A stretch of DNA of 20,287 nt from Verrucomicrobia bacterium UBA3869 (GTDB lineage Bacteria; Verrucomicrobiota; Verrucomicrobiia; Opitutales; UBA9783), in NCBI GenBank assembly GCA_002392285.1, contig DGGR01000014.1, positions 1 through 20,287 of the forward strand, written 5' to 3'. Positions 40 through 16,745 of the stretch are shown here, piece after piece; positions within the stretch are counted from its first letter, which is position 1, and each line of letters opens with the position of its first letter. Position numbers and translations under genes: made by a program. The notes under the pieces were generated by a model, which saw only the letters and a list, made by a program, of their open reading frames with translations, was not told the origin of the DNA and made no database searches.

Positions 40-1161
40 CTATTGTTTGGGTAAATTTTCCATTACTTTTTGGTGCATTTGCTCATTGACTGCATGGATT
101 TCAAAGCGTTGAGCATAGCATCGAGAAGCGTTACCCATAACCTCAATTTGATCGGGATGGGTAATAAAGAATTCCATGGCTTGAACAAGGGCCTGCGTAT
201 CCTTAATCGGAATTTGGATACCGTTTTTGCGGTCAATGATGGCCTCGCGGCATCCTATTGCATCCGTTGTAATAATCGGGCGGCCGCATGCTAATGCCTC
301 CAATAAAGCACGCGGTACACCTTCGCGGTAATAGGATGGGTAAACAAACACAGAACAGCAATTAATAGCTGAAGCCATAGCTTCGATATAACCCATATAC
401 TGAACTTGTTGGCTGATTGTCTGCAATTGTTCACGTGAAATAGCCGAAGGATTGGTGTCAATACCGCCTCCGAGTAAAAATTCAACCTGCGGGTAGCGTT
501 TTTTAAGCTGTTGTGCAGCCTCAATATAATGAAACACACCCTTTTCTTTGATGAGGCGTGCAGCCATCAAAAACGTAAGCTTTTGCGGATAAGGTTGAGG
601 GTAAAAAGCTTGCAAATCAACGCCTGTGCCAGGGACTACTGAAGAACGGTCTTGGGTTACAATTCCTTGTTGTAGGAACAATGCACGATCGTCTGGATTC
701 TGAAAAAATACATGCGAAAAGTTTTTAAAGCTGTGTTGATAGAAAAACAAACAAAGGTGCTTAATGAGTTTGCGCTTTAATCCTGGCTCATCGATAAACG
801 CATAACCTAAGCCAGAAACAAGGCCATAAATCTGCTTAAAACCCAAATGAGCGGCAATCCATCCTCCATATACATTCGGTTTAACGTTGCCCAAAAAGAG
901 TACATCGGGGTGTACCGTACGCAGCAATTGACGGATGGAAGCCAATGCCCGCAGGTTATTAATGGGACCAATAGAGGTTCCACTAAATCCATCAAACGGG
1001 ACAAAGCTAACATTTGGGCATAAGGTTTTACCGACCTTCAACACTTCAGCGGATGCTGCATAAAGCACCTTCCATCCTTTTGCCTGAAAATCATTAACCA
1101 ACGTATGCCTTAATCGTAAGGTCGATACATTGGATCCGAAAAAGAACAAAATAGATGGCAT
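40..1161 (-). CDS. glycosyltransferase, GT-B fold, family 4-like
   Basis: 373-aa product from the ATG at 1161 (MPSILFFFGS...). The C-terminal EGVPRALLEALACGRPIITTD contains an E-x7-E motif typical of GT4/GT1 retaining glycosyltransferases. The track ORF extends to a GTG at 1257, but that extension runs through the tRNA at 1179-1263, so the ATG at 1161 is preferred. Confidence 0.8.
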   Translation of the reverse strand: MPSILFFFGSNVSTLRLRHTLVNDFQAKGWKVLYAASAEVLKVGKTLCPNVSFVPFDGFSGTSIGPINNLRALASIRQLLRTVHPDVLFLGNVKPNVYGGWIAAHLGFKQIYGLVSGLGYAFIDEPGLKRKLIKHLCLFFYQHSFKNFSHVFFQNPDDRALFLQQGIVTQDRSSVVPGTGVDLQAFYPQPYPQKLTFLMAARLIKEKGVFHYIEAAQQLKKRYPQVEFLLGGGIDTNPSAISREQLQTISQQVQYMGYIEAMASAINCCSVFVYPSYYREGVPRALLEALACGRPIITTDAIGCREAIIDRKNGIQIPIKDTQALVQAMEFFITHPDQIEVMGNASRCYAQRFEIHAVNEQMHQKVMENLPKQ

Positions 1162-1178
1162 GGATAAACAAAGGTACT

Positions 1179-1263
1179 TGGTGCTCGAGAAGGGATTTGA
1201 ACCCTTACGCCTTGCGGCACCAGATCCTAGGTCTGACGTGTCTGCCAATTCCACCACTCAAGC
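1179..1263 (-). tRNA. tRNA-Leu, anticodon UAG, class II with long variable arm, CCA encoded
   Basis: The reverse complement folds by hand into a cloverleaf. Acceptor GCTTGAG/CTCGAGC (one G-U pair), D stem GTG/CAC, anticodon stem TCAGA/TCTGG, loop CCTAGGA (anticodon TAG at 1227-1229), variable arm TGCCGCAAGGCGT, T arm AAGGG-TTCAAAT-CCCTT, discriminator A plus CCA. It is very similar in layout to E. coli leuW. Confidence 0.9.
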
Positions 1264-5171: not shown

Positions 5172-5933
5172 TTATTTTTTATCCTCAAAGGTATAAAATT
5201 CAGGTGTAATACTGAAGGATTGAATCGACCCAACAAGAGGTTGTCGATTGCGTGCACTACTCATTAAGTAAAGCGTCAGCGTTTGCTCCATAAAAGGCAC
5301 TGAATAGGTATGAATTGTATTATATCCTTGGTAAAGCTCTGGGTGGGTACATAAAACACTCAACCCGTTGTGTTCAACAAAGGACAAAGTTAAATAAACC
5401 AGATCATTCAACGGCCGTAGTTTTTTCGAACAAAACAACGGCTGTTCTTGAGCCAAATGGACGTGCTGTTCTTGAATCGCCTTTTCATCTCCCTGCAGGT
5501 TTTTATCGTGCGGTGAAGCAATCGCGAAAGAAATGGAGGTGTTTACAACGTTTTGCGTGGATAGCGGTACGGGTTGGTTTGTTCTTAGAACGAGTCTCGT
5601 GGTAGGTCGTGTTCCTGGCGCTACTTGCCTCACAACCGGCACCGTAGGTTGTATGGGTGTTGCCTCCGTTGGCTGTTCAGAAAAAGTAAACAGGCCGGCA
5701 ATACGGTCCTTTAAACCCGATTTTGACGGATGTACCACGCGGGTTCGATGGATAGTCTGGCCTCCAACGGTATAGGTGTAATCAAAGGTTAAGGATGCCA
5801 AGCTCCAAAACCAATAAGAATAGGTCTTAATAGAAACCGTTACATTACAGCGTTGGTTAAAGGGGAGAGCCAAAATGCTGGGGCTTACCCCCAGCTCATT
5901 GACAATCGTACGGAATGAAGGCGCAACAGGCAT
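5172..5933 (-). CDS. hypothetical protein, last gene of the phage-derived cluster (beta-rich ends with Pro/Thr-rich linker)
   Basis: 253-aa ORF that starts 3 nt after the stop of the 562-aa ORF (TGA-TTT-ATG at 5939-5931). The central linker is QPTEATPIQPTVPVVRQVAPGTRPTT. I recognise no family. Its position suggests a distal structural or host-attachment component. Confidence 0.55.
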   Translation of the reverse strand: MPVAPSFRTIVNELGVSPSILALPFNQRCNVTVSIKTYSYWFWSLASLTFDYTYTVGGQTIHRTRVVHPSKSGLKDRIAGLFTFSEQPTEATPIQPTVPVVRQVAPGTRPTTRLVLRTNQPVPLSTQNVVNTSISFAIASPHDKNLQGDEKAIQEQHVHLAQEQPLFCSKKLRPLNDLVYLTLSFVEHNGLSVLCTHPELYQGYNTIHTYSVPFMEQTLTLYLMSSARNRQPLVGSIQSFSITPEFYTFEDKK

Positions 5934-5936
5934 AAA

Positions 5937-7625
5937 TCAGCGGGAAGCAATCATCCAAAATTGTTTTAGCTCTCCGTTTTCAACCATATTAAACGGTTTT
6001 AGGGAAAGCTGCGTGTTTTCAGGCAACGCATTCGCATTAATCATCACCTGCTTTGATTTCGTTCCAATTGTTAATTGCGTATAGCGTCCCATATCCACCT
6101 GAGAATCGGAAATGGGCGACATGTGAGGGAAATAGGTTCTATTTCCAGAACTTTGGTCGGCAAAGCGCATCTTTGGGTTATCCGTGATGGTACGGATTCG
6201 GTTCGTATGCATCAATTGACAGATATCGTTAGGTCCTAATTGCTTAGGGGCTCCAAACTTTAAAACGGTCGTTCCAGTATCCAACGAAATTCGTTCTTCT
6301 TGTACGGGTAAACTCAACGTGGCCCAAGCAGGTTCGCCATCTAAAAACGACAAAGCGTGGCCGATAAAAGGTCCCGATAGATCTTCATCGATCAACGTTA
6401 ATTGTCCCTCATAGCGCAAACACCCTATCGATTGATACAGCGTGGTTGCTAAACCAACCGGAGGCTGTGTTGTTTTGCCGCTAGAAATAACGTTTTGGTA
6501 GATCCTAGATTGCGCATTGGTTGCACAAATTTTTACCGAAAATGGACGTTCGGTATCCATTTCATCTGTTACGTAATGGATACTGGCGCTGATTGTTTCA
6601 TAGGTGGCGTCACATCCCATCCAAGGCGCAATTGCGCCTTCCAGTAACTCATTCGGTAGATTAGACATTCGCTGGACGTTGGAAATTTGTATCGATTTCG
6701 CATCAACCAAACAAGGAAAATGCTTTTTCCACCAGTTGTCGCTTTCAGGTTGAATCGGTTGCGTCTGTACCCATTGTTCCTGCACATGCGCATGCGATCC
6801 TTCCAATTCAACCGTCAATACCAACGCATTTAGTTCTTCGCCGGTTGCGTTTTCGGGATAGCGATCCACCGTAACGCTTTTCCACGTAGCTCCATCGGCT
6901 GAATGCGAATGTTCGTATTTCAGAACAACCGCTGCTATCTTTAAATCATTACGTGGGATGATGGAAAACTGGGTCAGTTGGCGCAGAGACAACGATTGTT
7001 TTTGTAAAGCGGACGCACAAGCAAAATGAATCGTTGGGGTTTTCGTCGTATAATCGATCCAAGCGGTAGCATTGGGGGTCCAACGTAATAGCTTTAAAAT
7101 CGCTTCACTACAACTGCAGTCCTTGATGGTTTCGCAAGGAAACTCGAAATCAAAACCGGAAATAGTCCCACACTCGATCGGTGCATGATGCGCTTTCGCA
7201 TAATCAACGATTGCCTGCAGACACTGGCGAGCATTGATCGTATTTCCTTGATCATCTTGACCCAACAAACACACACTACGGTTAATCACCTCTGTGGTGG
7301 TCGCTGTACCATCTTTAAAATAGCGCCAAGGTTGTTGAAAAACCAAATGATCGAAATACCAAAATGGACCGGATGCTTTGTAATAAGCGGATTCAGAATC
7401 CGCTGTATAATACGTTGGCGTTTGGGTAATACGCCCCCAAAACCACCGAGTGTTATCCTGAAATACTTCAATGATTGCGTCGCATTCAAACACGGGTGCT
7501 GAAGCATCCGTTTGAAAGGTAACCGTATCCGTCCCTTGATTCAGGATGTGGCGCGTAACATTAGAAATACCCCATTCGGCCAAAGGTTTGGTTTGGCCGT
7601 GATAGGACAGGGTCCATTGCTTCAT
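5937..7625 (-). CDS. hypothetical large structural protein; possible tail-hub/host-interaction protein
   Basis: 562-aa ORF and the largest gene in the cluster. It occupies the slot where hub or tip proteins sit in tailed-phage and GTA clusters. The N-terminal approx. 100 aa (MKQWTLSYHGQTKPLAEWGISNVTRHILNQGTDTVTFQT...) resemble the start of phage hub/gpD-like/distal-tail proteins, but only loosely. This is not a tape measure, because it is not Ala/Gly-rich and helical. Confidence 0.6.
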   Translation of the reverse strand: MKQWTLSYHGQTKPLAEWGISNVTRHILNQGTDTVTFQTDASAPVFECDAIIEVFQDNTRWFWGRITQTPTYYTADSESAYYKASGPFWYFDHLVFQQPWRYFKDGTATTTEVINRSVCLLGQDDQGNTINARQCLQAIVDYAKAHHAPIECGTISGFDFEFPCETIKDCSCSEAILKLLRWTPNATAWIDYTTKTPTIHFACASALQKQSLSLRQLTQFSIIPRNDLKIAAVVLKYEHSHSADGATWKSVTVDRYPENATGEELNALVLTVELEGSHAHVQEQWVQTQPIQPESDNWWKKHFPCLVDAKSIQISNVQRMSNLPNELLEGAIAPWMGCDATYETISASIHYVTDEMDTERPFSVKICATNAQSRIYQNVISSGKTTQPPVGLATTLYQSIGCLRYEGQLTLIDEDLSGPFIGHALSFLDGEPAWATLSLPVQEERISLDTGTTVLKFGAPKQLGPNDICQLMHTNRIRTITDNPKMRFADQSSGNRTYFPHMSPISDSQVDMGRYTQLTIGTKSKQVMINANALPENTQLSLKPFNMVENGELKQFWMIASR

Positions 7626-7627
7626 GA

Positions 7628-7747
7628 TTAATGACGAGTATTGCTGATTTGTTCACGCAACTCCTCTATCCGACCTGCTAAATCAGCGAGTTGGTTTTCG
7701 TGCTCTTTGATTGCATCTAATAATTCATAATAATCATTTTGTTTCAT
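7628..7747 (-). CDS. unannotated 39-aa coiled-coil-like small ORF (MKQNDYYELLDAIKEHENQLADLAGRIEELREQISNTRH)
   Basis: Hand-translated and below the ORF-track size cutoff. Its ATG at 7747 overlaps the end of the 133-aa ORF by 14 nt. Its TAA at 7628-7630 lies 2 nt before the ATG of the 562-aa ORF, so it fills the only otherwise empty gap in this part of the operon. It has a heptad-like amphipathic pattern. Confidence 0.4.
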   Translation of the reverse strand: MKQNDYYELLDAIKEHENQLADLAGRIEELREQISNTRH

Positions 7748-8135
7748 GTAGATTTCCTCCGTAAATTTTATAAAGGGTATAAGAAGCGTTCCCTTTGGAA
7801 TGCGTTTGAATCGTGCATAAGGTAGCGTCTTCTAAAAGAGTGGTTTTTTTGTCGCTCGGGGCTTCAAAATCGATCGACAGTTGGCCTTTTGCATGGATCA
7901 ACTGACTAGCGTGCGTTAAGCTATATTGAATCGCTTCTGCTTTACTTGCATGACGCTTGCTAACCTCCAAAACAATTTCTGTCTGTTGGTTATCCCGCCC
8001 TAACGCTTTAGCAAAGTCCGCATGGATCGCCTTACGCCATTGAACCGTCCAATGCGCCGTTATCTCTAAGCGCGTAATAGCTTCGTTGGTTCTTTCTCCA
8101 TCCGACAAAACATAGCTATTGAGGGTAATTTTCAT
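7734..8135 (-). CDS. hypothetical phage structural protein (133 aa; tube-, stopper- or distal-tail-sized)
   Basis: The start overlaps the upstream stop (ATGA at 8132-8135). It follows the two neck-like genes. I recognise no family. Its size and position match small tail-tube or tail-terminator proteins of siphovirus/GTA-type clusters. Confidence 0.55.
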   Translation of the reverse strand: MKITLNSYVLSDGERTNEAITRLEITAHWTVQWRKAIHADFAKALGRDNQQTEIVLEVSKRHASKAEAIQYSLTHASQLIHAKGQLSIDFEAPSDKKTTLLEDATLCTIQTHSKGNASYTLYKIYGGNLHETK

Positions 8136-8584
8136 AAAGCAACGTCAAAATTGGTCGCTTCGAAATTCACTTGAAGCGCATTTTTTCTATCAACCGTTAA
8201 CCATTCCCAAGGGGCGCTTTCAGCCAATCTAAACGTGCCTTTCCATAGGTTTTTGACCGTTAAAGTAGCCCCTGCAAGCGCAAAACTCACCTGCTCGGCA
8301 TAATCGACAAAATCGCTTTTATCGGCAGTTGTAATCGATTGCAACAAGGTGCACTTTAACGCCAAGGTGTCCCAGCAGGGAGCCACCAATGCAGGCAGGG
8401 TTTTTAAGGGAAACGGTAGATCGATAAACAATACATACGGTGCTGTTTGTACCAAGCGCCTTTGAGTCCGTTTTTTGAGCAAAAAATTATTATTTGCAAC
8501 AATCTTGGCTGTTGCATTTAAGTCCGGTTGCTTTTGGAAAAAGCTAACAACTTCTGACTGAATGGCTCGCAAAACAGGCTTCAT
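8132..8584 (-). CDS. putative head-tail joining / neck protein (150 aa)
   Basis: Position is second after the capsid gene, with ATGA coupling at both ends. The N-terminus MKPVLRAIQSEVVSFFQKQPDL...APYVLFIDL loosely resembles the DUF3168/HK97 gp10-like or Mu gp37-like head-tail joining families. Confidence 0.5.
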   Translation of the reverse strand: MKPVLRAIQSEVVSFFQKQPDLNATAKIVANNNFLLKKRTQRRLVQTAPYVLFIDLPFPLKTLPALVAPCWDTLALKCTLLQSITTADKSDFVDYAEQVSFALAGATLTVKNLWKGTFRLAESAPWEWLTVDRKNALQVNFEATNFDVAL

Positions 8585-9006
8585 AATCCTTTTAAGGTTG
8601 ATTGTTTCACATCATGTTCCCGATGATCAACGGCTTCTATACGCGGTTCCCAACGCTTGGCTTGGGTATTCCAATCCGTAAACAACGCATCTAACGTTTT
8701 GCGGGCTTGGTCTGCTGCACGAACCTGATCTTCAGACGCCATAAGCTCAGGCATCCGAGTTTGCAAAACTTCAATCACCAAATGGCAAGCAGCTTGCTTA
8801 CAAGCATCTGGAAGATGATTGGCCTTGATCGGATTAGGTAACCAAGCACTGGGAATCCGTTGCCGTATATAAGCGCATACATCGGCAATAATACCCTGCA
8901 AAATCGTTTCTTTTGGAGTCAGGGCGCTGAGTTGCTCTTCAATCAGATAATCCGATAGGTCGTTAGGTTTTAATTGAATCCACTGTAAGGTAATAGGCTG
9001 TATCAT
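8581..9006 (-). CDS. putative head-tail adaptor (Mu gp36/DUF1320- or gp6-like, 141 aa)
   Basis: First gene after the major capsid gene. The helical N-terminal pattern ...DLSDYLIEEQLSALTPKETILQGIIADVCAYIRQRI resembles head-tail connector/adaptor families. Position and size fit. Confidence 0.5.
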   Translation of the reverse strand: MIQPITLQWIQLKPNDLSDYLIEEQLSALTPKETILQGIIADVCAYIRQRIPSAWLPNPIKANHLPDACKQAACHLVIEVLQTRMPELMASEDQVRAADQARKTLDALFTDWNTQAKRWEPRIEAVDHREHDVKQSTLKGL

Positions 9007-9019
9007 AAAAATGGGTTCG

Positions 9020-9042
9020 ACGGGATGGAGTTACCATCCCGT
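9020..9042 (-). promoter_or_regulatory. perfect 9-bp stem / 5-nt loop RNA hairpin immediately downstream of the capsid gene
   Basis: ACGGGATGG-AGTTA-CCATCCCGT (perfect inverted repeat) lies in the 49-nt gap between the capsid stop (9056) and the next ATG (9006). On the mRNA strand the T-run (ATTTTTATG) begins 8 nt after the stem, so this is not a canonical terminator. Confidence 0.6.
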
Positions 9043-9055
9043 TACACTAATGGGT

Positions 9056-9955
9056 TTAGGCTCCTTGAACTGTCCAATGAATGAGGTTCGTTTTCGAAGT
9101 CACTGCAATCGTCGAGAAGCACTCAACAATGATGTCGGTATACTTAGGCTGTTCTACTAAATATACGCGGAAGAAGTGACCTTCAGGCGACAAGGTTACA
9201 AAGTACTTCAAGTTCGACAAAGCGTCCTTAAACATGGAATCTTCAGCGTAGAAAGCAAAAACACTGTTGTCCTTCAATTGTCCTTGAATGCCTAAGTTGT
9301 TTTGCTTCAAGAGCTGAACTGAATCCATGCGCAAAAACTCTGCTACGGTTTCGCGGGACATTTGAGCGGCGATACGAGCTCCTGCAGTATCTTGTCCAGC
9401 ATAACAATCTTGGCGAATAAACCATGCGGGTTCGGAATAAAGTATGCGATTGGGATAAAATCCATTCTTCTTGCAGGCTTCCATTAACACTTTACGGATA
9501 TCCGTATCCGGAGAAGCTTTTCCCGTCCAGGTTAACTTTCCACCATTGTTTGCGTTTGCAATCAAGGCTTTGATCACGCGACGCAACTCATTGCGATAGA
9601 TTTGCTCTTGCAAGAAATAAACATAACGCATTGGCCAATCTTTCCCGTTGATATCATCGACATCCACACGAACTCCCAATCCCTTATTGAGGGTTTTAGC
9701 AGTGATGGATTCACCTTGGAAATCTATGTATTTAAAGTTGCTGCCTGTTGCGCGAATATCATCTTCTTCCGTGCTAAAGAACTGGTCTGGCGCTGCTTTT
9801 GTGTATTGAAAGTAGCGTGCAACCGGAATGGCTGGCGCAATAAAATTTAAAGTTTTCTTTAAATCTTCATGGTTGTGCGTACTGTTTGCAAATTCAGTAA
9901 GCTCCATCGATAGATGTCCTGTGTTATAAGTGAAATCGTTTGTTTGTGTCGTCAT
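9056..9955 (-). CDS. major capsid protein (HK97-fold expected; lambda gpE / Mu gpT-like size)
   Basis: 299-aa ORF in the canonical slot after the protease/scaffold and the small decoration-like gene. The size matches Mu gpT / Phage_cap_E-type capsid proteins. The assignment rests mainly on synteny. Confidence 0.7.
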   Translation of the reverse strand: MTTQTNDFTYNTGHLSMELTEFANSTHNHEDLKKTLNFIAPAIPVARYFQYTKAAPDQFFSTEEDDIRATGSNFKYIDFQGESITAKTLNKGLGVRVDVDDINGKDWPMRYVYFLQEQIYRNELRRVIKALIANANNGGKLTWTGKASPDTDIRKVLMEACKKNGFYPNRILYSEPAWFIRQDCYAGQDTAGARIAAQMSRETVAEFLRMDSVQLLKQNNLGIQGQLKDNSVFAFYAEDSMFKDALSNLKYFVTLSPEGHFFRVYLVEQPKYTDIIVECFSTIAVTSKTNLIHWTVQGA

Positions 9956-9960
9956 ATCGT

Positions 9961-10389
9961 TTACTTAACGAAGTTTTGAGGTAACGTGGTTAAGGATTCA
10001 ACCAGGGTGCCTTTAGATCCATCGGTTAACGCAATACCAATGAAAAGCATGTCTTTAGTCAGCTTTTTGGCTTTGCCTTCATCTGATAAGCCCAAAGAAT
10101 CTCCAGGCTTAACCTCATCATCAAGTAAAATGCGTGCGCTTTGATCGGTGCAGCTTAACGGCTGAATGGAGATATGCGCATCTTGATCCTTTGTGGGATT
10201 TGCATCCCGTAATGCTATACCGAATGGATATTCTCCCTTACAGCATGCTTTTACATAGTTTTGACTTCCGTCAAAGGTGACCAGCATGCCTTTTGCGATA
10301 GGGTTTTTCTTTACGCTTAACGTAAAGGATCCTCTGTGATAGCCAAATGTATTCTCATTTGCCATAATAATAGTGTTTAGTTGTTTCAT
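9961..10389 (-). CDS. putative head decoration / capsid accessory protein (DUF2190-like)
   Basis: 142-aa beta-rich ORF between the protease and capsid genes. This is the usual location of DUF2190-type decoration proteins in Mu-like/BcepMu-like head modules. An alternative start is the ATG at 10365 (MANENTF...). Confidence 0.5.
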   Translation of the reverse strand: MKQLNTIIMANENTFGYHRGSFTLSVKKNPIAKGMLVTFDGSQNYVKACCKGEYPFGIALRDANPTKDQDAHISIQPLSCTDQSARILLDDEVKPGDSLGLSDEGKAKKLTKDMLFIGIALTDGSKGTLVESLTTLPQNFVK

Positions 10390-10407
10390 AAAATTAATAT
10401 CTATCAG

Positions 10408-11259
10408 TTAAAAGCGTTCTTCGTCTCGTTGAACCGCGCACCAGGCTTCTGGATAGTTTTCGCCTGTTTGTTGCATGCGCTGCATAACCTTTTGCGAAAA
10501 ATCCAAAATGCGCTTTTTATCGCCGCGCGTTTGCTGCCCGTGCAAATTATGCGAATGTGCTTTTCGCTTCGATTTTCGCTTAGAGACCGCCTTGTTTTTG
10601 TCAGCCTTTATTACCTGCTTCTTCGCAACTGGTTTCTTAACAACAGGAGTGCTTTGTGGAGCATCCGGTGCTACCTGAAATAGCCACTGATAGCCTTTGC
10701 GTATCTGCTGCCACATCCGAAGTAACCGATGATAGCAACCTTTTATCAGAGCACATAGCCAGCAATGCGAGGATTTGGCTTTTTGTTGTTTCACCACCCG
10801 TAACTTTTTCAAGCACTCCTGTGCTTCATCGTACGGAATAGGCTCGACCGGTAAATTGGGTTGTTGGGTAAGTCCGACCGACAATAGGTTGATGGGATGG
10901 AAGGTTGACTGATGCGCATCCTTGATCAAAACCCAACGGGGCGATAAGTAAGTATAGACGCGATTAGCAATCAGTTCATAACTGCAGCGATTCCATTTGA
11001 TTTTTACAAACAATCCCTCGTTGTTAACGGTGATGCGTCGCACATACCCATAGACTTTATGCGGTACCGGATTCGCTGGGTTGTTGTACAAGGGATCATC
11101 AGGATGACCAATGTACACCGGAATTTTATCGCAGCGTAAGCGTATTTTTAGGCGCTTGCTTTTGGAGGCACAACGCTTGGCATCCGTAAGTTCTATTGTT
11201 TGTTTCCCATAGGGATGGTTGAACGTACCATAAGGAGATAATTGTATCCAATTTTTCAT
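10408..11259 (-). CDS. prohead protease (Mu gpI-like) fused to a basic scaffold-like C-terminal region
   Basis: The N-terminus MKNWIQLSPYGTFNHPYGK...IPVYIGHPDD...LSPRW...GLTQQPNLP matches my recollection of the Mu-like prophage protein I family (Pfam Mu-like_Pro). It lies directly downstream of the portal. The C-terminal 80 aa are Lys/Arg-rich (VVKKPVAKKQVIKADKNKAVSKRKSKRKAH), in the position of the nested scaffold gpZ of Mu. Confidence 0.7.
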   Translation of the reverse strand: MKNWIQLSPYGTFNHPYGKQTIELTDAKRCASKSKRLKIRLRCDKIPVYIGHPDDPLYNNPANPVPHKVYGYVRRITVNNEGLFVKIKWNRCSYELIANRVYTYLSPRWVLIKDAHQSTFHPINLLSVGLTQQPNLPVEPIPYDEAQECLKKLRVVKQQKAKSSHCWLCALIKGCYHRLLRMWQQIRKGYQWLFQVAPDAPQSTPVVKKPVAKKQVIKADKNKAVSKRKSKRKAHSHNLHGQQTRGDKKRILDFSQKVMQRMQQTGENYPEAWCAVQRDEERF

Positions 11260-11266
11260 AAAAATT

Positions 11267-12508
11267 TTATTTTTGAAGACCTTCCTCAGATTCCGCTACC
11301 GGATGAACGCCCCACTTTTGCAGGGTGTCTTTGACGTCTAGAGGTGGATTAATTCCAAAATGTTCACGGATATCGTTAACGCTGAGCGATACGCCCATAT
11401 CGTAAAGCGTTTTGATAATAGCCAAATCGTTATTCAGGTTCTTGTTAGATGACGATTTGAGCCGGAAATACGCTTTCGGCTGCTTAATGCCTTCAAGGCG
11501 CGATAATACTTCACGATCCACTTGTTCATTCAGGGTCTCTGAAATCCTTTGTGCATCTTCTTCTTCCAAGATATTGTTTTCGTTGCGTTGAAGGGTAACA
11601 CCGGTAGGGTTTTCCTTGCTCGAATTGATTAAGCGGGTACCCAACCATGTCAGATACATAAGATCGTCTATACGTTTGACGAATTCCGGGTAAGGCAATA
11701 CACCTTTGCCGGAAATATCAATGGCCTGGATATCCGTTCCGTGCGACATCACCGCACAAAATTCAGCACTAAAGTTTTTTACCGCATCGCACGCCATATC
11801 CCATTCCTTAGAACCGGGACGCGCTTGTGTAATACCCTTTACACCGGGCATACCATTGCGCTCGCAATAGATGAGCCAATCGCGCAAGGAGAGGTGTTTA
11901 AATAGATAGGCAATAGAGCTGGATTCCATCAATCCATCGCCCGTGGTTACCAACCATTCACCAGGCGTAGTTGGAACCTTTTTATGGGTTTCGGGATCCA
12001 CAAACTGTAACCGACCTCCTTCGTTTTCAAAGAAAAACAGCGGAACAAAGCGAAATTCGGCGGTTAATAACTCGGTATTGTCTTGCTTGAACGGCTTAAA
12101 CACTAGTTCATGCACCGCATATCGTTTGCCAACCGCATCCATCATCTGATGAATGAGCAACGATAAACCGCCATGCTCGTTTTCATCAAACGCATTAACG
12201 CAACTTAGGTTGTTATAAAACTGCTCCAAAATGACCTTTTGACGCATAGCCTCGTCGGAACTATCAAGGGTTAGAATTTCCCAATCGAGACGCGCAATGG
12301 ATTTTTTACGCTTGGAAATAGCGCCCTGTAATACATCGTCCCGTTGCTCAATCGCATCCCAAATCATGGCTGCTTGCTTCAAGCGCCCTGCATGAAAATC
12401 ATCTAAAATTTTAGAAAGCGATTGGGGAGTAAGAGAACGAATGGGGTTCCAGCTTTGCGCACTAAAACGCTCCGTTCGGATAGAGGTGGTATAAATGTTG
12501 GTTTGCAT
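11267..12508 (-). CDS. phage portal protein (Mu gp29 / DUF935-type)
   Basis: 413 aa. The N-terminal segment LSKILDDFHAGRLKQAAMIWDAIEQRDDVLQGAISKRKKSIARLDWEI follows the DUF935 portal pattern (..G....a..L.e.me.rD.hl.s....R..av..l.w.i). It starts 5 nt after the terminase stop. Confidence 0.85.
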   Translation of the reverse strand: MQTNIYTTSIRTERFSAQSWNPIRSLTPQSLSKILDDFHAGRLKQAAMIWDAIEQRDDVLQGAISKRKKSIARLDWEILTLDSSDEAMRQKVILEQFYNNLSCVNAFDENEHGGLSLLIHQMMDAVGKRYAVHELVFKPFKQDNTELLTAEFRFVPLFFFENEGGRLQFVDPETHKKVPTTPGEWLVTTGDGLMESSSIAYLFKHLSLRDWLIYCERNGMPGVKGITQARPGSKEWDMACDAVKNFSAEFCAVMSHGTDIQAIDISGKGVLPYPEFVKRIDDLMYLTWLGTRLINSSKENPTGVTLQRNENNILEEEDAQRISETLNEQVDREVLSRLEGIKQPKAYFRLKSSSNKNLNNDLAIIKTLYDMGVSLSVNDIREHFGINPPLDVKDTLQKWGVHPVAESEEGLQK

Positions 12509-12513
12509 AAAAA

Positions 12514-13860
12514 CTAGAAGGTTAAGCGTTGAATTTGCATAGGGCCTTGGAAAGAAGGTAGGGAAAACGTTTCAGCTGCACAGGAACCGATCGATACTGT
12601 TTGAGCAGCATGAATAGCTAGGGCTAATCCCCAAAAACGATCTGCATGCCCATTGGGTCCGTGTTTAGCGGTTAAACGACCCTGTTCGTCAATTTGCATG
12701 CTGAGTAAGTCCGTTACCAATTCCTCATCAGACGATAAACGCACCATTTGACGATCTACCTGCGCTTTTAAGGCATAGGCCAATTGTTCCTTGGTGTTTT
12801 GGGTAAATTGAATTCCTTCGATTCGGTCGTCTCCAAAACGCTTTTGTGCGCGCTCTAAAAACTGCCGCCCCATACCTGTTTGATCCACACAAACGCGTTG
12901 TACATTAAAGCGGTGGAACAACTGGTCGAAGACCGATTCTTGTTGATCGAACGGTGCATCTTTTAAGCATTGGACGTGGCGTAGATAACACATCTCGTTG
13001 ATTTGTTCTACAATCACAAAGGTGCTTAAATCATTGGTTCGCGCCAAATCGACTCCCATGAGCATAACGCCATCAGAAGTTTGTCTCCAATCTTCAGCCT
13101 CCGAATAGAAACACTTTTGAATTGCCTCGTAGGATAACAGGGAATCGGAATGATCCATGGGCTGACACATGTATTCCTGCAAAAAGCTTTTTTCGGTCGC
13201 ACAGGATTGTTTAATAAAATTGTAATAATCACCAGCATCCATTGCTTGACGGGGATCATCCGGAGGCAATTTGGCTTTTAATTTGTCTAAAAATCCTTGG
13301 TCTAACGCATCCTCTAAGGTTACCCGATGCAGCGAAATTTGTTTGGGATTCCCTTCGTTACGAATTTCCTCTATTAAACGATTGAAGAAGTTATGAGCTC
13401 CGCGATGGGTTGAAATAATCTCCAATTGCCCACCCCAGGTAATTCCGGGATAAGCAATGTTGTACAAGGCTTCCGGATCTTCATGGAGCGCAAATTCATC
13501 AAGGATACGCGATCCTCGCTTTCCTGCCTGTGCATTGACCGCCGACGAAATCAGGGTTAACGTACTTCCATTGCGCAAACGCAACACCGTACGCAAATTC
13601 GAGGCACGCCCCAATAGCTGTTCGTGATACGCTTGATTTAAAATAGCTGCAAAGGATTTGCAGTCGTTCAAAAACAGCTGTGCTTGCTGCAAATCACGCG
13701 AACAAATCCAAACGTGGGTGTTCGCATGGGTTATAGCCTTACGCAACGCCCGATAAGCCGTTGCCCAGGATAAACCAATCTGCCTCGATTTCTCCATTAT
13801 CTTAATCCGGGAAGTATCTTGTATCCACTTCGCTTGATAAGGTAAGAAGAACGTTTTCAT
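12514..13860 (-). CDS. terminase large subunit (ATPase + nuclease)
   Basis: 448 aa. FLPYQAKWIQD...EKSRQIGLSW is a deviant Walker A typical of this terminase family. SRILDEFA is the Walker B. MGVDLA and GHADRFWGLALA are RNase H-like nuclease Asp motifs. Both domains appear intact. Confidence 0.9.
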   Translation of the reverse strand: MKTFFLPYQAKWIQDTSRIKIMEKSRQIGLSWATAYRALRKAITHANTHVWICSRDLQQAQLFLNDCKSFAAILNQAYHEQLLGRASNLRTVLRLRNGSTLTLISSAVNAQAGKRGSRILDEFALHEDPEALYNIAYPGITWGGQLEIISTHRGAHNFFNRLIEEIRNEGNPKQISLHRVTLEDALDQGFLDKLKAKLPPDDPRQAMDAGDYYNFIKQSCATEKSFLQEYMCQPMDHSDSLLSYEAIQKCFYSEAEDWRQTSDGVMLMGVDLARTNDLSTFVIVEQINEMCYLRHVQCLKDAPFDQQESVFDQLFHRFNVQRVCVDQTGMGRQFLERAQKRFGDDRIEGIQFTQNTKEQLAYALKAQVDRQMVRLSSDEELVTDLLSMQIDEQGRLTAKHGPNGHADRFWGLALAIHAAQTVSIGSCAAETFSLPSFQGPMQIQRLTF

Positions 13861-14180
13861 AGTAGGTTTAACTGATCCTCCAGATTGCTCAGCATTTCTT
13901 CCGACAAATCAGATTCCGCTTGCGCATTATTAACCTTGCTACAAACCGCAAATAACTCTCGGTAGTTGTGCAGAAGCTTCGTTAAAATCCCCACAATTTC
14001 TTTGGTTGTACTAAAATTGGCCGATTTAGCATCCACGCATAATTGGTCAAATAAACGCTCCCAAAGCATCCCCATCGATTGCTCAGCAACATGCATTTGC
14101 TCTAATAAGGATGCAGCGTTTTTAGCCCGCTTAATACGCTCTAAATGCTCGTTAAATTCTACTGGGGTTGCGCTTTTCAT
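13857..14180 (-). CDS. small helical protein; small-terminase candidate
   Basis: 107-aa all-helical-looking ORF whose stop overlaps the terminase start (ATGA at 13857-13860). This is the canonical TerS position. I recognise no family. Confidence 0.45.
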   Translation of the reverse strand: MKSATPVEFNEHLERIKRAKNAASLLEQMHVAEQSMGMLWERLFDQLCVDAKSANFSTTKEIVGILTKLLHNYRELFAVCSKVNNAQAESDLSEEMLSNLEDQLNLL

Positions 14181-14427
14181 TTTCTAAAAAATCAATGCCT
14201 TGAGCGGATATTTTGTATCGGTATGCTTGCGGACAAATATCATTGCTTAGCCGCAACACAAATCCCTTGTCTTGCAAATACGCTAGTTCCTTTTCCAACA
14301 AACGCCTGTTCGCCGGCAATCCGTGCAAAAATACACCCTGCTTGAGCGTTTCAATCGGTAACGATACTGGATAGGCTGACTCTAACTGTAACAGGAGGGT
14401 CCTACGTACAAATTCATTTATTTTCAT
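14152..14427 (-). CDS. winged-helix-like DNA-binding protein (regulator or DNA-recognition part of a small terminase)
   Basis: 91 aa. LLLQLESAYPVSLPIETLKQGV...LEKELAYLQDKGFVL...YKISAQGIDFLE has the helix-turn-helix plus beta-wing pattern of PadR/MarR-like wHTH domains. It overlaps the next ORF by 29 nt. Confidence 0.5.
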   Translation of the reverse strand: MKINEFVRRTLLLQLESAYPVSLPIETLKQGVFLHGLPANRRLLEKELAYLQDKGFVLRLSNDICPQAYRYKISAQGIDFLENEKRNPSRI

Positions 14428-14435
14428 AAAATCCC

Positions 14436-14891
14436 TTAACGTTTAAAGTCCACCAACGTATATCCAAAATAGAGCCCCATAATGGCTGACAGAAGGTGCG
14501 TATCGAGCGGGGTAATTACAACTCCGTGCAGCTGAATCCAGGTCAGGTTTTCAACTCCAGAACAAAAGCTAAACAATTTGCGCGTTGTTTTTGTAATCCC
14601 AATCGTAATGGGAATGTTGGGACAAAAAACAGCTACTAGCTTCGGCCATACAATTACAAAAAATACAGCCGATAAGGCGATGATGCGTCGCACTAACTGT
14701 AGACTGGACGTCATACGCGCGCGATGAACCATCGTTGCTTGAACGTTCGAACGCCGCAACGTTAATACACGTTCATAGTGACGTGCCATAAATATAAAAC
14801 TTATCAGGCGCATACTGCTCCCGATTATGGATGACCCCAACAGCGCATACAGCTCAGATGGGATAGGGTTAGCGAACATGTTTTGTGTCAT
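14436..14891 (-). CDS. small integral membrane protein (about 3 predicted TM segments), first gene of the cluster
   Basis: 151 aa with hydrophobic stretches LYALLGSSIIGSSMRLISFIFMA, IIALSAVFFVIVWPKLVAVF and LLSAIMGLYFGYTLV. It ends 8 nt upstream of the next gene. Its function is unknown; holin-like, exclusion or anchoring roles are guesses. Confidence 0.55.
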   Translation of the reverse strand: MTQNMFANPIPSELYALLGSSIIGSSMRLISFIFMARHYERVLTLRRSNVQATMVHRARMTSSLQLVRRIIALSAVFFVIVWPKLVAVFCPNIPITIGITKTTRKLFSFCSGVENLTWIQLHGVVITPLDTHLLSAIMGLYFGYTLVDFKR

Positions 14892-15051
14892 TTTCGCTAT
14901 TATATAAATATTTGTATTATCATTAATGATTAAATGTGATATAATACATAAATTTTTTAAAATTTAACTAAAAAGACTATTTGAGGCTAAATGGTTTTTT
15001 GTCACAGCAAAATCATCAGCAATGCTTATATCGCTTGTTATGCGAACAGAT
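14892..15051 (-). promoter_or_regulatory. strongly AT-rich spacer; probable promoter/operator region of the phage-derived cluster
   Basis: This is the only sizeable non-coding stretch next to the cluster. It contains a perfect 12-bp palindrome ATCATTAATGAT (14919-14930) and an imperfect palindrome ATGTGATATAATACAT (14934-14949). A consensus TATAAT on the minus strand (14899-14904) lies only 7 nt upstream of the ATG at 14891. I found no convincing -35. Confidence 0.4.
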
Positions 15052-15108: not shown

Positions 15109-16275
15109 TTAATTACCGTCCTGCATTTCCGCAGCGACCAACTCGTCGAAGGTATCGCGATGAGGATAGGAATCTAGGATCTTAAACGCACGTAAGTTTT
15201 CCACACAACGTGCTTCGTACACATCGTAATTCTCTTTGGTCAACCGATGCTTATCGTGCTCAATGCACCACGCCATGTAGCGGTTGATATCGGGATGATA
15301 ATGACCTGGATCGCAGTAATTCGCTAGGTTGCTTACAAAAGCGCAATCATGCCAACCGTAGATTTTGACATTCGGGAGATCGGCACAGGTGGTTATCAAA
15401 TGACGAGTGCCAAAGAAAAACGCATCATAAATTTGCGTTGGAGATAAAGTACGTTGGAGCCAATGAAATATATACCGATATACCGTCCAACAATTGGGCG
15501 CTATCATCACGTGAAATTGGATAGACGGATGCGTACGGATTATATGCAGTAAAGGTTCCATCCTGTTCTTAACGAGTGAGCTCGTCATCGAAGACTCCGT
15601 AATGCAATAATGCTCAAAATTATGTACAGCCTTCCGGGTCAAAGCTAATGTTTTAGGTTGAATCCAGCGAGCAAAGTACTTTTCTCGCTGCGAAAACCAA
15701 TTATGGATATCATCCACCTGATCCCACGGATGAAATCGTTCGTTTTTAGTTATCTCCCAATGCCTCGGAATAATATAAAATCCTGGCACACTACGTAGGC
15801 ATTTTGGGTTCCATAAGCATAACCAAGGATGCGCCACATAGGGTTTTACCGTTTCCAATGCGTCATCTTGTTTCTCAAGCGATAACCAACACCAAGCATC
15901 CATAAGGATAAAAGCATGTTTTAGATGCCCACTAGCAATACTCCGATTTAGCCATTCCCGACACATTTCCATGCTTTGGTTTCCATTACACAACTTCAGA
16001 ACGCCTTTAGCACCTACTGCCTTGGCTAAATCACTACCTTTAAAGTTCATCGAATGGGAGGATCCTAACAGAACGCTATCGTAATCACCCGGCTTGAGGT
16101 AGGTCTCAATTTGACCCAAATTGAGTAAACTTTGGCTACCAAACCATAGGTTCTTGTTCCATCGCGTCTCATGAAATATATGGTACGGATCTACAATGTA
16201 GACCATCAACGGCCCTATCGTCCAAAATAGAAGCGTGAAGATAATAAAATATACAATGTTCCGGCGATGAGGCAT
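15109..16275 (-). CDS. membrane-anchored SGNH/DltD-like hydrolase or acyltransferase (putative)
   Basis: 388 aa. N-terminal TM anchor (IVYFIIFTLLFWTIGPLMVYIV) followed by DPYHIFH. LLGSSHS resembles SGNH block I, and the C-terminal CDPGHYH resembles the DxxH block V. The layout is like DltD/DUF1574-type proteins. The call is weak and motif-based only. Confidence 0.4.
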   Translation of the reverse strand: MPHRRNIVYFIIFTLLFWTIGPLMVYIVDPYHIFHETRWNKNLWFGSQSLLNLGQIETYLKPGDYDSVLLGSSHSMNFKGSDLAKAVGAKGVLKLCNGNQSMEMCREWLNRSIASGHLKHAFILMDAWCWLSLEKQDDALETVKPYVAHPWLCLWNPKCLRSVPGFYIIPRHWEITKNERFHPWDQVDDIHNWFSQREKYFARWIQPKTLALTRKAVHNFEHYCITESSMTSSLVKNRMEPLLHIIRTHPSIQFHVMIAPNCWTVYRYIFHWLQRTLSPTQIYDAFFFGTRHLITTCADLPNVKIYGWHDCAFVSNLANYCDPGHYHPDINRYMAWCIEHDKHRLTKENYDVYEARCVENLRAFKILDSYPHRDTFDELVAAEMQDGN

Positions 16276-16277
16276 GG

Positions 16278-16745
16278 CTACAAACTTCCCCGTGTGCTCA
16301 TTTCGCTTAATTGCTTTTGCAAAGCTGATTGGAACTCAATCCTATCGTTATCACTTGGACGATAACCGCTTGTTTCCGGCTGCAAAGCCACGCGACCCAA
16401 TTGATCCAACCCCCAAGTTGCCTTCTGTCCATCAGAAAATGTAACCGAACCATTGACCAGCATTCCCGGCCGTGTAACGGGATCCAAAGATACGGTTACC
16501 GATCCCTTACCTGCATCCACTAACGAACCCTCTAAAGGAGCTGCTGATGGCTTATTAGGTTTAGCTTCAGCAGGTTGAGGAAACTGCAAATGCAGATCAT
16601 CCATCAAAAAGCGCGTTTCTAGATAAGTTAAGCGTTTGGCAAAAGTTGCCTGAATTTTAGATTGCAACTCACCGATAGAATGTAATTCATTCATCCAGCG
16701 ACGCATTTGAGCTATTTGCTCATCAGAAAACGAAGCATTATTCAT
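16278..16745 (-). CDS. hypothetical protein translationally coupled to dnaA (155 aa)
   Basis: The start overlaps the dnaA stop (ATGA at 16742-16745). Its stop is 2 nt from the next ATG. It has a helical N-terminal half, a Pro/Ala linker and a beta-rich C-terminal half. I recognise no family. Confidence 0.6.
   Translation of the reverse strand: MNNASFSDEQIAQMRRWMNELHSIGELQSKIQATFAKRLTYLETRFLMDDLHLQFPQPAEAKPNKPSAAPLEGSLVDAGKGSVTVSLDPVTRPGMLVNGSVTFSDGQKATWGLDQLGRVALQPETSGYRPSDNDRIEFQSALQKQLSEMSTRGSL

Follow-up and report, generated by a model that had tools for sequence, protein, structure and literature searches.

A compact operon of Mu-like head and DNA-packaging genes in Opitutales, a candidate minimal gene-transfer-agent-like particle

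The locus described here raises the question of why a compact set of phage-derived head and DNA-packaging genes lies intact among the housekeeping genes of a bacterial chromosome. The window (the whole stretch of DNA that was analysed, 20,287 nucleotides) is taken from contig DGGR01000014.1 of Verrucomicrobia bacterium UBA3869 (assembly GCA_002392285.1, a gut genome; Opitutales), and the block in question spans positions 5172-14891 (9.7 kb) of its minus strand. An earlier reading of this DNA, made from the letters alone and called the original prediction below, had offered three explanations: a domesticated particle resembling a gene transfer agent (GTA), a capsid-forming satellite using tails encoded elsewhere, or a very recent prophage remnant. 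Conservation, selection and gene content favoured the first. We propose, with a probability of about 0.55, that the block derives from a Mu-like tailed phage, was domesticated long ago, has since been inherited vertically and makes a minimal, GTA-like particle; the most fitting description is that of a candidate new GTA-like family, Mu-like by origin, minimal in its tail and specific to Opitutales. Judged from its genes and their conservation, the block is quite probably a domesticated, functional particle operon; that its function is the GTA-type transfer of host DNA falls a little short of an even bet. More tentative again is the broader proposal of an independent, order-wide GTA family of Verrucomicrobiota, with the smallest known self-sufficient particle of head and stub tail, split between loci in some lineages and carrying a toxin-armed tip in a marine lineage.

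The operon is made of 14 co-directional open reading frames (ORFs), 13 of at least 90 aa and one of 39 aa (Table 1), and the ORF listing contained no credible plus-strand gene among them. Every reading frame was open. Recomputed junction gaps were, in operon order, +8, -29, -4, +5, +7, +18, +5, +49, -4, -4, -14, +2 and +3 nt, with ATGA overlaps on the minus strand at 8132-8135, 8581-8584 and 13857-13860, exactly the layout given in the original prediction. The flanks were also as it described: tRNA-Leu, ileS, a dksA-like gene and lspA on one side, where the convergent lspA is separated from the last block gene by just 6 nt, and dnaA on the other, with a 388-aa gene and a 155-aa gene standing between it and the block. 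The GC content of the block (44.3%) and of its flanks (43.7%) revealed no compositional break. No att-like direct repeats were found at the block ends, only short chance repeats, and a scan of the window with Rfam matched the tRNA alone. Proteins identical to those of the window have been deposited from 'Opitutae bacterium' metagenome-assembled genomes (MAGs), annotated as hypothetical, and a near-identical contig is present in GCA_003521725.1.

Table 1 Features of the block in operon order, with window positions and the main basis of each assignment
Feature	Positions	Strand	Basis
Upstream control region of operon	14892-15021	-	promoter-like site 15005-14976
g1, 151-aa membrane protein, first operon gene	14436-14891	-	phrog_38283 (family of unknown function) 2.5e-7
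g2, 91-aa small protein	14152-14427	-	phrog_3983 8e-6, phrog_436 4e-5 (both unknown function)
g3, 107-aa helical protein	13857-14180	-	ATGA-coupled to large terminase
Large terminase TerL, 448 aa	12514-13860	-	Terminase_6N 1e-12, Terminase_6C 7e-11 (Pfam); phrog_2 7.5e-32
Portal, Mu gp29 type, 413 aa	11267-12508	-	Pfam Portal_Mu 4.1e-51
Head maturation protease, Mu gpI type	10408-11259	-	Mu-like_Pro 3.5e-11 (Pfam); phrog_328 2.3e-11
g7, 142-aa head accessory protein (decoration/cement or scaffold type)	9961-10389	-	phrog_673 'head scaffolding protein' 2.4e-8
Major capsid protein, 299 aa	9056-9955	-	gene directly after protease and accessory genes
g9, 141-aa head-tail adaptor, Mu gp36/gp6 type	8581-9006	-	matches of homologues
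g10, 150-aa neck protein	8132-8584	-	position kept at all loci
g11, 133-aa tail-tube-fold protein (predicted)	7734-8135	-	AlphaFold2 model, pLDDT 79, and Foldseek
g12, 39-aa coiled-coil ORF	7628-7747	-	slot between tube-fold and hub genes
Tail hub/central spike, 562 aa, T4 gp27/Mu gp44/VgrG type (predicted)	5937-7625	-	AlphaFold2 and Foldseek
g14, 253-aa distal/tip protein	5172-5933	-	family alignment

Family searches indicated that the head and packaging genes named in the original prediction had for the most part been recognised correctly. The large terminase (TerL) consists of an ATPase domain and an RNase-H-like nuclease domain, and its motifs are intact: the P-loop KSRQIG[LI]S, the Walker B motif LDEF and STHRG were invariant in six orthologues (48-98% identical), as were the nuclease Asp residues in GVD, VDQTG and GHADRFW. 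Its ratio of nonsynonymous to synonymous divergence (dN/dS) was 0.10. The assignments of a DUF935/Mu gp29-type portal and of a Mu gpI-type protease were borne out by their Pfam matches. Portal dN/dS was 0.016-0.038; the protease ends in a variable, basic C-terminal tail resembling a scaffold, and its orthologues range from 193 to 373 aa in length. The capsid call was weaker but supported. A profile of 34 capsid sequences matched PDB entry 3bjq, deposited as 'Phage-related protein' and which we take to be an HK97-fold capsid protein, with an E-value of 0.0026, and four members of the capsid family gave a weak match to Phage_capsid_4. The positional counterpart of g7 in the related locus L087 matched Phage_cement_2 weakly; g7 evolves fastest in the block, with 83% identity to its L083 counterpart and dN/dS of 0.24-0.42.

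Two neck proteins had been anticipated. The 141-aa product (g9) was identified as an adaptor of the Mu gp36/gp6 type: its homologue in the outgroup L091 is recorded as Phage_Mu_Gp36, members of the family gave weak matches to Mu_Gp36 and Phage_connect_1, and the L103 homologue matched phrog_195 'head-tail adaptor' (3e-7); a profile search of PDB sequences with g9 gave nothing usable. The 150-aa product (g10) had no match in Pfam, PHROG or PDB sequence searches and is left without assignment; from its position alone we infer a stopper or terminator role.

Contrary to the original prediction, which saw no recognisable tail genes, two distal ORFs were predicted to have tail folds. The AlphaFold2 model of the 562-aa product, built with 29 homologues (pLDDT 80, pTM 0.68), was matched by Foldseek over about 500 columns, with E-values of 6e-13 to 1e-8, to PDB chains from the Algoriphagus, Photorhabdus virulence cassette (PVC), antifeeding prophage (AFP) and Anabaena contractile injection systems and from diffocin. 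In the same range of E-values it also matched the 43 kDa tail protein of prophage MuSo2, Mu gp44 and VgrG1. Its dN/dS was 0.06-0.07. The modelled structure is that of a hub-spike of the gp27/gp44/VgrG type. For g11, the best Foldseek matches in the PDB all belonged to the superfamily of tube, Dit, terminator and Hcp proteins (E-values of 6e-3 to 0.1, TM 0.38-0.54, probabilities 0.9-1.0); they included the 80alpha baseplate chain 6v8i_AC, the AFP baseplate chain 6rao_A, a Pam3 sheath-tube chain, the T5 tail terminator p142, Hcp, SPP1 Dit and chain 6tba_50 of the native GTA virion. The E-values were modest and the matches unanimous, and by its model g11 is a protein of the tail-tube fold. Its dN/dS was 0.07-0.12, and a profile search of PDB sequences gave nothing usable.

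Between the tube-fold and hub genes lies g12, which shares 14 nt with g11 and is separated by 2 nt from the start of the hub gene. This ORF is 39-57 aa long in relatives, and the slot was occupied in all relatives checked for it (at least nine loci). As g12 stands in the tape-measure slot, we speculate that it could be a minimal tape measure or plug. Homologues of g11 with 157-170 aa prompted a search for a programmed g11-g12 frameshift of the tail-chaperone kind; their extra residues turned out to be N-terminal extensions from an upstream start, and the frameshift was rejected. Insertions in L098, L100 and L103 were considered as a source of a tape measure and also rejected, as their genes of 693-833 aa were fibre-, lectin- or LamG-like according to PHROG matches and composition. 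In L098 the insertion (11243-13537) encodes a 764-aa tail-fibre-like protein with fibre repeats, placed between g11 and g12; L100 (4084-9026) has several extra genes, including one for a 693-aa Gly/Asn-rich protein with a signal-peptide-like N-terminus; and in L096 (8913-9799), L097, L122 and L123 g10 and g11 are separated by about 0.9 kb of additional sequence.

The remaining functions of a phage were looked for and not found. Pfam scans of the window proteins detected no integrase, transposase, repressor or replication family, and the same was true of Pfam families of genes up to 10 kb from the block at nine places; neither Pfam nor PHROG assigned the block or the scanned flanking ORFs to a family for integration, replication or lysogeny. 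No sheath or baseplate-wedge family was detected in the block with these two collections, and the block contains no tape measure of normal length. The original prediction had noted the absence of integrase, repressor, replication, lysis and sheath genes and of a tape measure of normal length. The block is thus a cluster of structural and packaging genes of the kind expected of a GTA, lacking replication, integration and lysogeny functions. It has the head genes of a Mu-like prophage (portal, protease and gp36-type adaptor), but a transposase (MuA/MuB), a repressor, a lysis cassette and a complete tail were undetected in the window and in related compact loci, and it is therefore not a Mu-like prophage. 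The original prediction had held that distal ORFs identified as ordinary tail genes would make this a small, conventional prophage; tail genes are indeed present, and the block is not a conventional prophage.

The history of the block was examined by comparison with its flanks, including the lspA side, where the original prediction had proposed to look. The lspA-dksA-ileS flank is common to the window, L083 and L093, and the block was present and syntenic in both relatives with low dN/dS. Between the window and L083, synonymous divergence (dS) of the block genes was 0.05-0.21, as against 0.07-0.20 for the flanking genes, and dN/dS ran from 0.016 (portal) to 0.45 (g3), leaving aside g12 (0.64, four substitutions). 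Between the window and L093, dS was 0.10-0.45 in the block and 0.25-0.38 in the flanks, with dN/dS of 0.04-0.28 and one outlier, the capsid gene (dS 0.80). In L092 and L204 the block occupies an identical position beside ligA and a class II tRNA synthetase gene, even though LigA is 78% identical between them and dS is saturated; block dN/dS in this pair was 0.10-0.24. The GC content of the block tracks that of the flanks from 37% to 56%. For the 90%-identity cluster of IleS, the long contigs listed (113, 115 and 241 kb) all recurred for the portal and the capsid protein. Taken together with the portal clade described below, the dS and dN/dS values, the shared locus and the GC content argue strongly for long-term vertical residence under purifying selection, as expected of a GTA.

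In the comparison with L083 and L093, the capsid protein (83-90% identity) and g7 (80-83%) diverged much faster than the portal (98-100%) and the hub (97-98%). For the capsid gene, the dS of 0.80 between the window and L093 compares with 0.2-0.45 in neighbouring genes, and its dN/dS was 0.13; it looks like a gene replaced by a more divergent allele via recombination rather than one under positive selection.

Searches with the capsid protein returned 67 homologues of 34-90% identity, many of them on contigs of 100-375 kb, and all those with a named source came from MAGs of Opitutales/Puniceicoccales. The intact block was found, in the same order, in at least 12 diverged lineages of these orders (capsid identity 40-90%). 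When the contexts of nine loci were inspected, the same genes occurred in the same order, all intact and always among housekeeping genes. Measured in nine loci, the distance from the end of the capsid gene to the start of the hub gene was 1434-1588 nt. The outgroup L091 (34% identity) has more conventional Mu-like neighbours. Further compact copies, one flanked by leuS, came from an alignment-based scan of IMG/VR, which also gave larger phage-like contigs (30-58 kb) that share the head genes and in which the capsid gene and the g11/hub homologues lie 3-9 kb apart; single-protein scans of IMG/VR with the capsid protein and the hub gave no close relatives. In a neighbour-joining tree of the portal the compact loci formed one clade (84% bootstrap) nested among the larger phage-like contigs, and pairwise identities of TerL, portal, hub and g11 were correlated (Spearman 0.74-0.94), so the block evolves as one unit and has a single origin.

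Deposited phages were distant. The capsid protein had no match among 50,697 deposited phage genomes; the closest portals there were those of Pseudomonas Mu-like phages, at 24% identity, and the hub gave only a weak 90-residue match, to an Akkermansia phage. Among GTDB representatives, 0 of 80 dnaA neighbourhoods carried the block; these loci, from a collection that does not include the window's own genome, are too distant to inform (nearest DnaA 51%), and the nearest DnaA matches all came from Opitutales or other Verrucomicrobiota. Some observations on the carriers touch on their lifestyle: a gene for an ATP/ADP translocase of the TLC family adjoins the block in L085 and L086 (L085:3742-5250, minus strand), and ankyrin-repeat proteins are encoded upstream of the block in the marine MAG L089 (1-2799), both of which are hints of host association.

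In one subclade the block appears to be divided, with the genes from portal to tip at one locus and the packaging genes at another. In L087/L088, L092 and L204/L205 the block begins at the portal, and neither TerL nor g1-g3 was found within 10 kb on either side. When metagenomes were scanned with the terminase alignment, g1-g2-g3-TerL turned up on its own at 18 loci, none of which had a portal gene within 6 kb. The neighbours of this stand-alone module were scanned at two of the 18 loci: in L137 it is flanked by an Fe-alcohol dehydrogenase and an outer-membrane protein on one side and by lpxC-fabZ and lpxA on the other, and in L127 by a DinG-like helicase, a radical-SAM enzyme and DUF481 on one side and phosphoglucomutase on the other. 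Flank GC and codon usage paired the two kinds of loci (L204 with L127, r 0.94; L092 with L149, 0.87; L087 with L129, 0.76). Such a split, if correct, is irreconcilable with a self-mobilising element. Two genes beside portal-first blocks were tried as divergent terminases and rejected, a 510-aa gene of L087, which found no support in tblastn, Pfam or PHROGs, and a 456-aa gene of L092, for which tblastn, the sole check, was negative. The stand-alone module of L137 lies on a 176-kb contig from a human-gut metagenome, beside a gene for a fused LpxC-FabZ of 446 aa (8367-9707), a sign that the human gut harbours relatives both of these bacteria and of the particle genes.

The last gene of the operon, g14, is also the most variable. 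Its product contains a Pro/Thr/Arg-rich linker of variable length, and its dN/dS was 0.28-0.30; the protein is probably exposed, with a role in receptor binding or in carrying cargo. Relaxed Pfam scans of g10, g11 and g14 orthologues gave only noise. The g14 family aligned with the first 190 residues of a 509-aa protein encoded at the same position in marine L089 (hhalign 97.4%, E-value 1e-11), which runs on into a PT-TG pre-toxin domain (2.9e-13). In the two marine (TARA) loci, L089 (14335-16134) and L090 (11094-14841), the last block gene encodes 509-539 aa with the g14 tip domain at the N-terminus and PT-TG at the C-terminus. Translational coupling links this tip gene to that of the hub; genes for 88-144 aa follow it, and L090 adds a second, orphan PT-TG gene. 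The region looks like the layout of polymorphic toxin-immunity cassettes, in which the small genes would be immunity-like, and the tip protein can, on this evidence, carry a polymorphic toxin in the L089 lineage. In the window's own tip protein, Pfam recognised no toxin domain.

At the other end of the operon, the neighbouring 388-aa gene finishes in a terminator-like hairpin (15075-15058), and the putative control region lies just downstream of this hairpin. The region aligned across the window, L083 and L093 with long invariant stretches, differing at 8 of 130 positions from L083 and at 18 of 132 from L093. Divergence at synonymous sites of the flanking genes is about double this, which is weak evidence of constraint; the twofold better conservation relative to synonymous sites is the sole hint of the host regulation expected of a GTA. 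The first gene, g1, is also the first gene in L083, L093, L085, L094, L089, L096 and L098 and in the stand-alone terminase modules; its product has a strong hydrophobic segment at about residues 63-97 and dN/dS of 0.09-0.17, and a holin-like or assembly role for it would be speculation. g2 always accompanies the large terminase, at split loci as well (dN/dS 0.04-0.08). Its profile gave weak winged-helix matches among PDB sequences (eS10, RosR, SlyA; E-values of 0.03-0.9), so that it is possibly a winged-helix DNA-binding protein and a candidate for the small terminase subunit or a regulator. No match to g3 was obtained in family scans or in a profile search of PDB sequences; its position, translational coupling and conservation with the terminase make it a candidate small terminase subunit.

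We hypothesise that the parts would work together as follows. The host would turn the operon on from the conserved upstream region, and procapsids would form on the portal and mature via the gpI-type protease. The heads would be loaded with DNA by TerL, for which g2 and/or g3 would serve as the small subunit; we guess at headful packaging without a dedicated pac site and assume that packaging is random. The tube-fold protein g11, as a single ring or a few, would close the neck (g9 and g10); the coiled coil of g12 would plug or measure these rings and a trimeric hub-spike carrying g14 would cap them, giving a head with a stub, non-contractile tail. Particles would be released by lysis functions encoded elsewhere and would deliver their DNA to related cells in the fashion of a GTA.

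Several observations weigh against this proposal. All genomes are MAGs or metagenome contigs, and the block is known from sequence alone. Lysis genes were not found in the window, nor were regulators identified. The location of the block varies between major clades, which have it beside lspA, prs, nrdD, a rhomboid gene, leuS or ligA, so that rearrangement or past mobility is needed to explain the distribution, and the capsid dS above that of its neighbours implies some horizontal exchange of alleles. GC does not match everywhere, with 54% in the block and 43% in the flanks of marine L089 and a mild difference in L094. The halves of the putative split system were paired across loci, not within one genome. 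Finally, the fusion of a toxin domain to the tip in one lineage fits a weapon better than a gene-transfer device.

The last point belongs to an explanation in which the domesticated particle delivers something to other cells or kills them, as a headed bacteriocin-like or toxin device, with DNA packaging incidental or serving to pressurise or complete the head. The toxin on the marine tip makes this conceivable, at least in some lineages, and the immunity-like small genes and second orphan toxin cassette beside it, the tail-fibre-like genes inserted in some variants and the best structural matches of the hub, to baseplate chains of extracellular contractile injection systems and VgrG with E-values of 1e-13 to 1e-9, all point the same way. 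We nevertheless consider it unlikely as a general account. The intact catalytic motifs of TerL, its dN/dS of about 0.1 and the fact that it stays with g1-g3 away from the head genes indicate that DNA packaging itself is under selection; no sheath is encoded and hence no contractile force is available; and the toxin fusion was seen in one lineage only, with none recognisable on the window's tip.

Somewhat less likely still is a selfish family of integrase-less satellites or defective phages, spread via a co-resident phage or by recombination and fixed-looking only through sparse sampling. Such a family would account for the differing chromosomal positions, the GC mismatch in L089 and the smaller one in L094, the allele exchange suggested by the capsid dS excess, the several copies catalogued in IMG/VR and the turnover of distal accessory fibre and toxin genes, but it has to be reconciled with loci that, where scanned, contained no integrase, transposase, replication, regulatory or att features. 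Block dS equalled flank dS in two genome pairs, the locus was identical across deep host divergence, the long IleS-cluster contigs listed all recurred for portal and capsid protein, and packaging and head modules are apparently separate in one subclade. The block also encodes its own hub and tube-fold genes and would have no need to steal tails. For the same reasons, namely these tail-tip genes and the absence of integrase, replication and regulatory genes at about 12 loci, the capsid-forming satellite of the original prediction is unlikely. A recent, decaying prophage remnant reduced to its head module, which the gene set (a subset of that of a Mu-like phage) and the larger relatives on 30-58-kb viral contigs might suggest, is highly improbable. 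All 14 frames are intact with the same boundaries in at least 12 diverged lineages, dN/dS is well under 1 for every gene, composition is ameliorated to each host and the locus is stable across 78% LigA identity; conservation of the intact block across such depth, with capsid proteins only 40-52% identical, refutes a very recent origin.

If the domesticated, GTA-like particle is accepted, it can be compared with known systems. The GTA of Rhodobacter capsulatus (RcGTA) is encoded by about 15 kb and 17 genes, among them a true tape measure, a distal tail protein, a peptidase and the megatron. Like the block, it is a chromosomal, vertically inherited, co-directional operon of structural and packaging genes under purifying selection, without integration, replication or lysogeny functions, with further functions presumably encoded elsewhere and with a shortened tail ending in a gp27-type hub. 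The block differs in its size (9.7 kb, 14 genes), in the 39-aa ORF in the tape-measure slot and in its phylum. In family scans its portal and protease matched Mu-type models and no recognisably RcGTA-specific model came up; the sole link to RcGTA seen in these scans and the fold searches is the match of g11 to 6tba_50. DNA transfer has been demonstrated for RcGTA, whereas the block is known from its genes alone.

In size and logic, the described system that comes nearest to the block is FpGTA of Faecalibacterium prausnitzii, which also resembles it in compactness and in its split-locus theme (Nat Commun 2026; PMC12946183). Its operon of about 10.5 kb, kept throughout one genus of gut anaerobes, codes for a TerS-like protein, TerL, portal, scaffold and capsid together with a small number of further conserved proteins, and gives particles with no visible tail or a very short one (PMC12946183). 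FpGTA belongs to Firmicutes, has podovirus-type tail proteins and a second locus with holin and endolysin, and is supported by electron microscopy, proteomics and packaged DNA, in fragments of 8.4-8.9 kb (PMC12946183). The block, in contrast, is Mu-derived, has a VgrG-like hub and has genes as its only evidence.

Mu-like phages (Mu; Pseudomonas MP29, PA1/KOR/2010 and JBD phages) are clearly the ancestral stock of the block, with which they share Portal_Mu, the gpI-type protease-scaffold, the gp36-type adaptor, the gp44-type hub fold and the order of head genes; unlike them, the block is without transposase, repressor, lysis, sheath, tape-measure and baseplate-wedge genes. Capsid-forming phage-inducible chromosomal islands (cf-PICIs) are small chromosomal elements with their own terminase, portal, protease, capsid and connector proteins; they carry integrase, regulators and replication genes, have no tail genes and hijack the tails of helpers. 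In the block the situation is reversed, as hub and tube-fold genes are present and no integrase, replication gene or flanking direct repeats were found. By fold, the 562-aa protein was matched best, across some 500 columns, by the central spikes VgrG, PVC8 and AFP8, and the toxin fused to the marine tip recalls the loading of effectors on VgrG-type spikes. Compared with type VI secretion and contractile injection systems, the block has no sheath, baseplate or AAA+ ATPase, and its spike would sit on a DNA-packaging head. Tailocins are made of sheath, tube and baseplate without a head, and the block, which has head and packaging genes, has only the spike fold in common with them. We therefore do not file it under Mu-like prophages, cf-PICIs or tailocins, nor under the RcGTA family, to which the family scans gave no sequence link; by its gene content it would work most like a GTA.

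No GTA or comparable element was found described in the literature for Verrucomicrobia or Opitutales, and to our knowledge only a handful of independently domesticated GTAs are known, most of them in Alphaproteobacteria; that of gut Firmicutes is a recent addition (PMC12946183). If the proposal is true, GTA-like biology would extend to the PVC superphylum (Planctomycetes, Verrucomicrobia and Chlamydiae) and to Verrucomicrobia of gut, rumen, termite and marine habitats. The block would show, in nature, how much a tailed-phage particle can shrink and still be selected, and would be a tractable minimal system of 14 genes in which a tube-fold ring and a hub replace the tail. The toxin-tipped marine variant raises the possibility that particles also serve bacterial antagonism, and toxin and immunity genes on the tip would couple gene transfer to kin discrimination. 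The conserved block also provides a marker for the re-examination of virome data, where reads from these bacteria in virus-like particles would be informative on packaging.

Some minor observations concern the genes around the block. The mechanically listed 405-aa ORF at window positions 40-1257 (minus strand, GTG start) reads through tRNA-Leu (1179-1263, minus strand); the true glycosyltransferase (GT4) gene is probably about 373 aa long, the length called in L083 and L093. The 388-aa gene (15109-16275, minus strand), which adjoins the block on its upstream side, encodes a product with a hydrophobic-looking N-terminus and without a Pfam or PHROG match. Homologous sequence is found at the same place in L083 and L093. 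The window gene and the L083 copy, which is broken into ORFs of 85 and 251 aa, are only 60% identical, while all the neighbouring genes are 91-100% identical. Synteny ends beyond this gene, with dnaA in the window and fabF/acpP/dnaX in L083. The 155-aa gene (16278-16745, minus strand) lies immediately downstream of dnaA, overlaps its end and has no family assignment; its position is kept at other Opitutia dnaA loci (L003-L007 and L013), with 28-41% identity.

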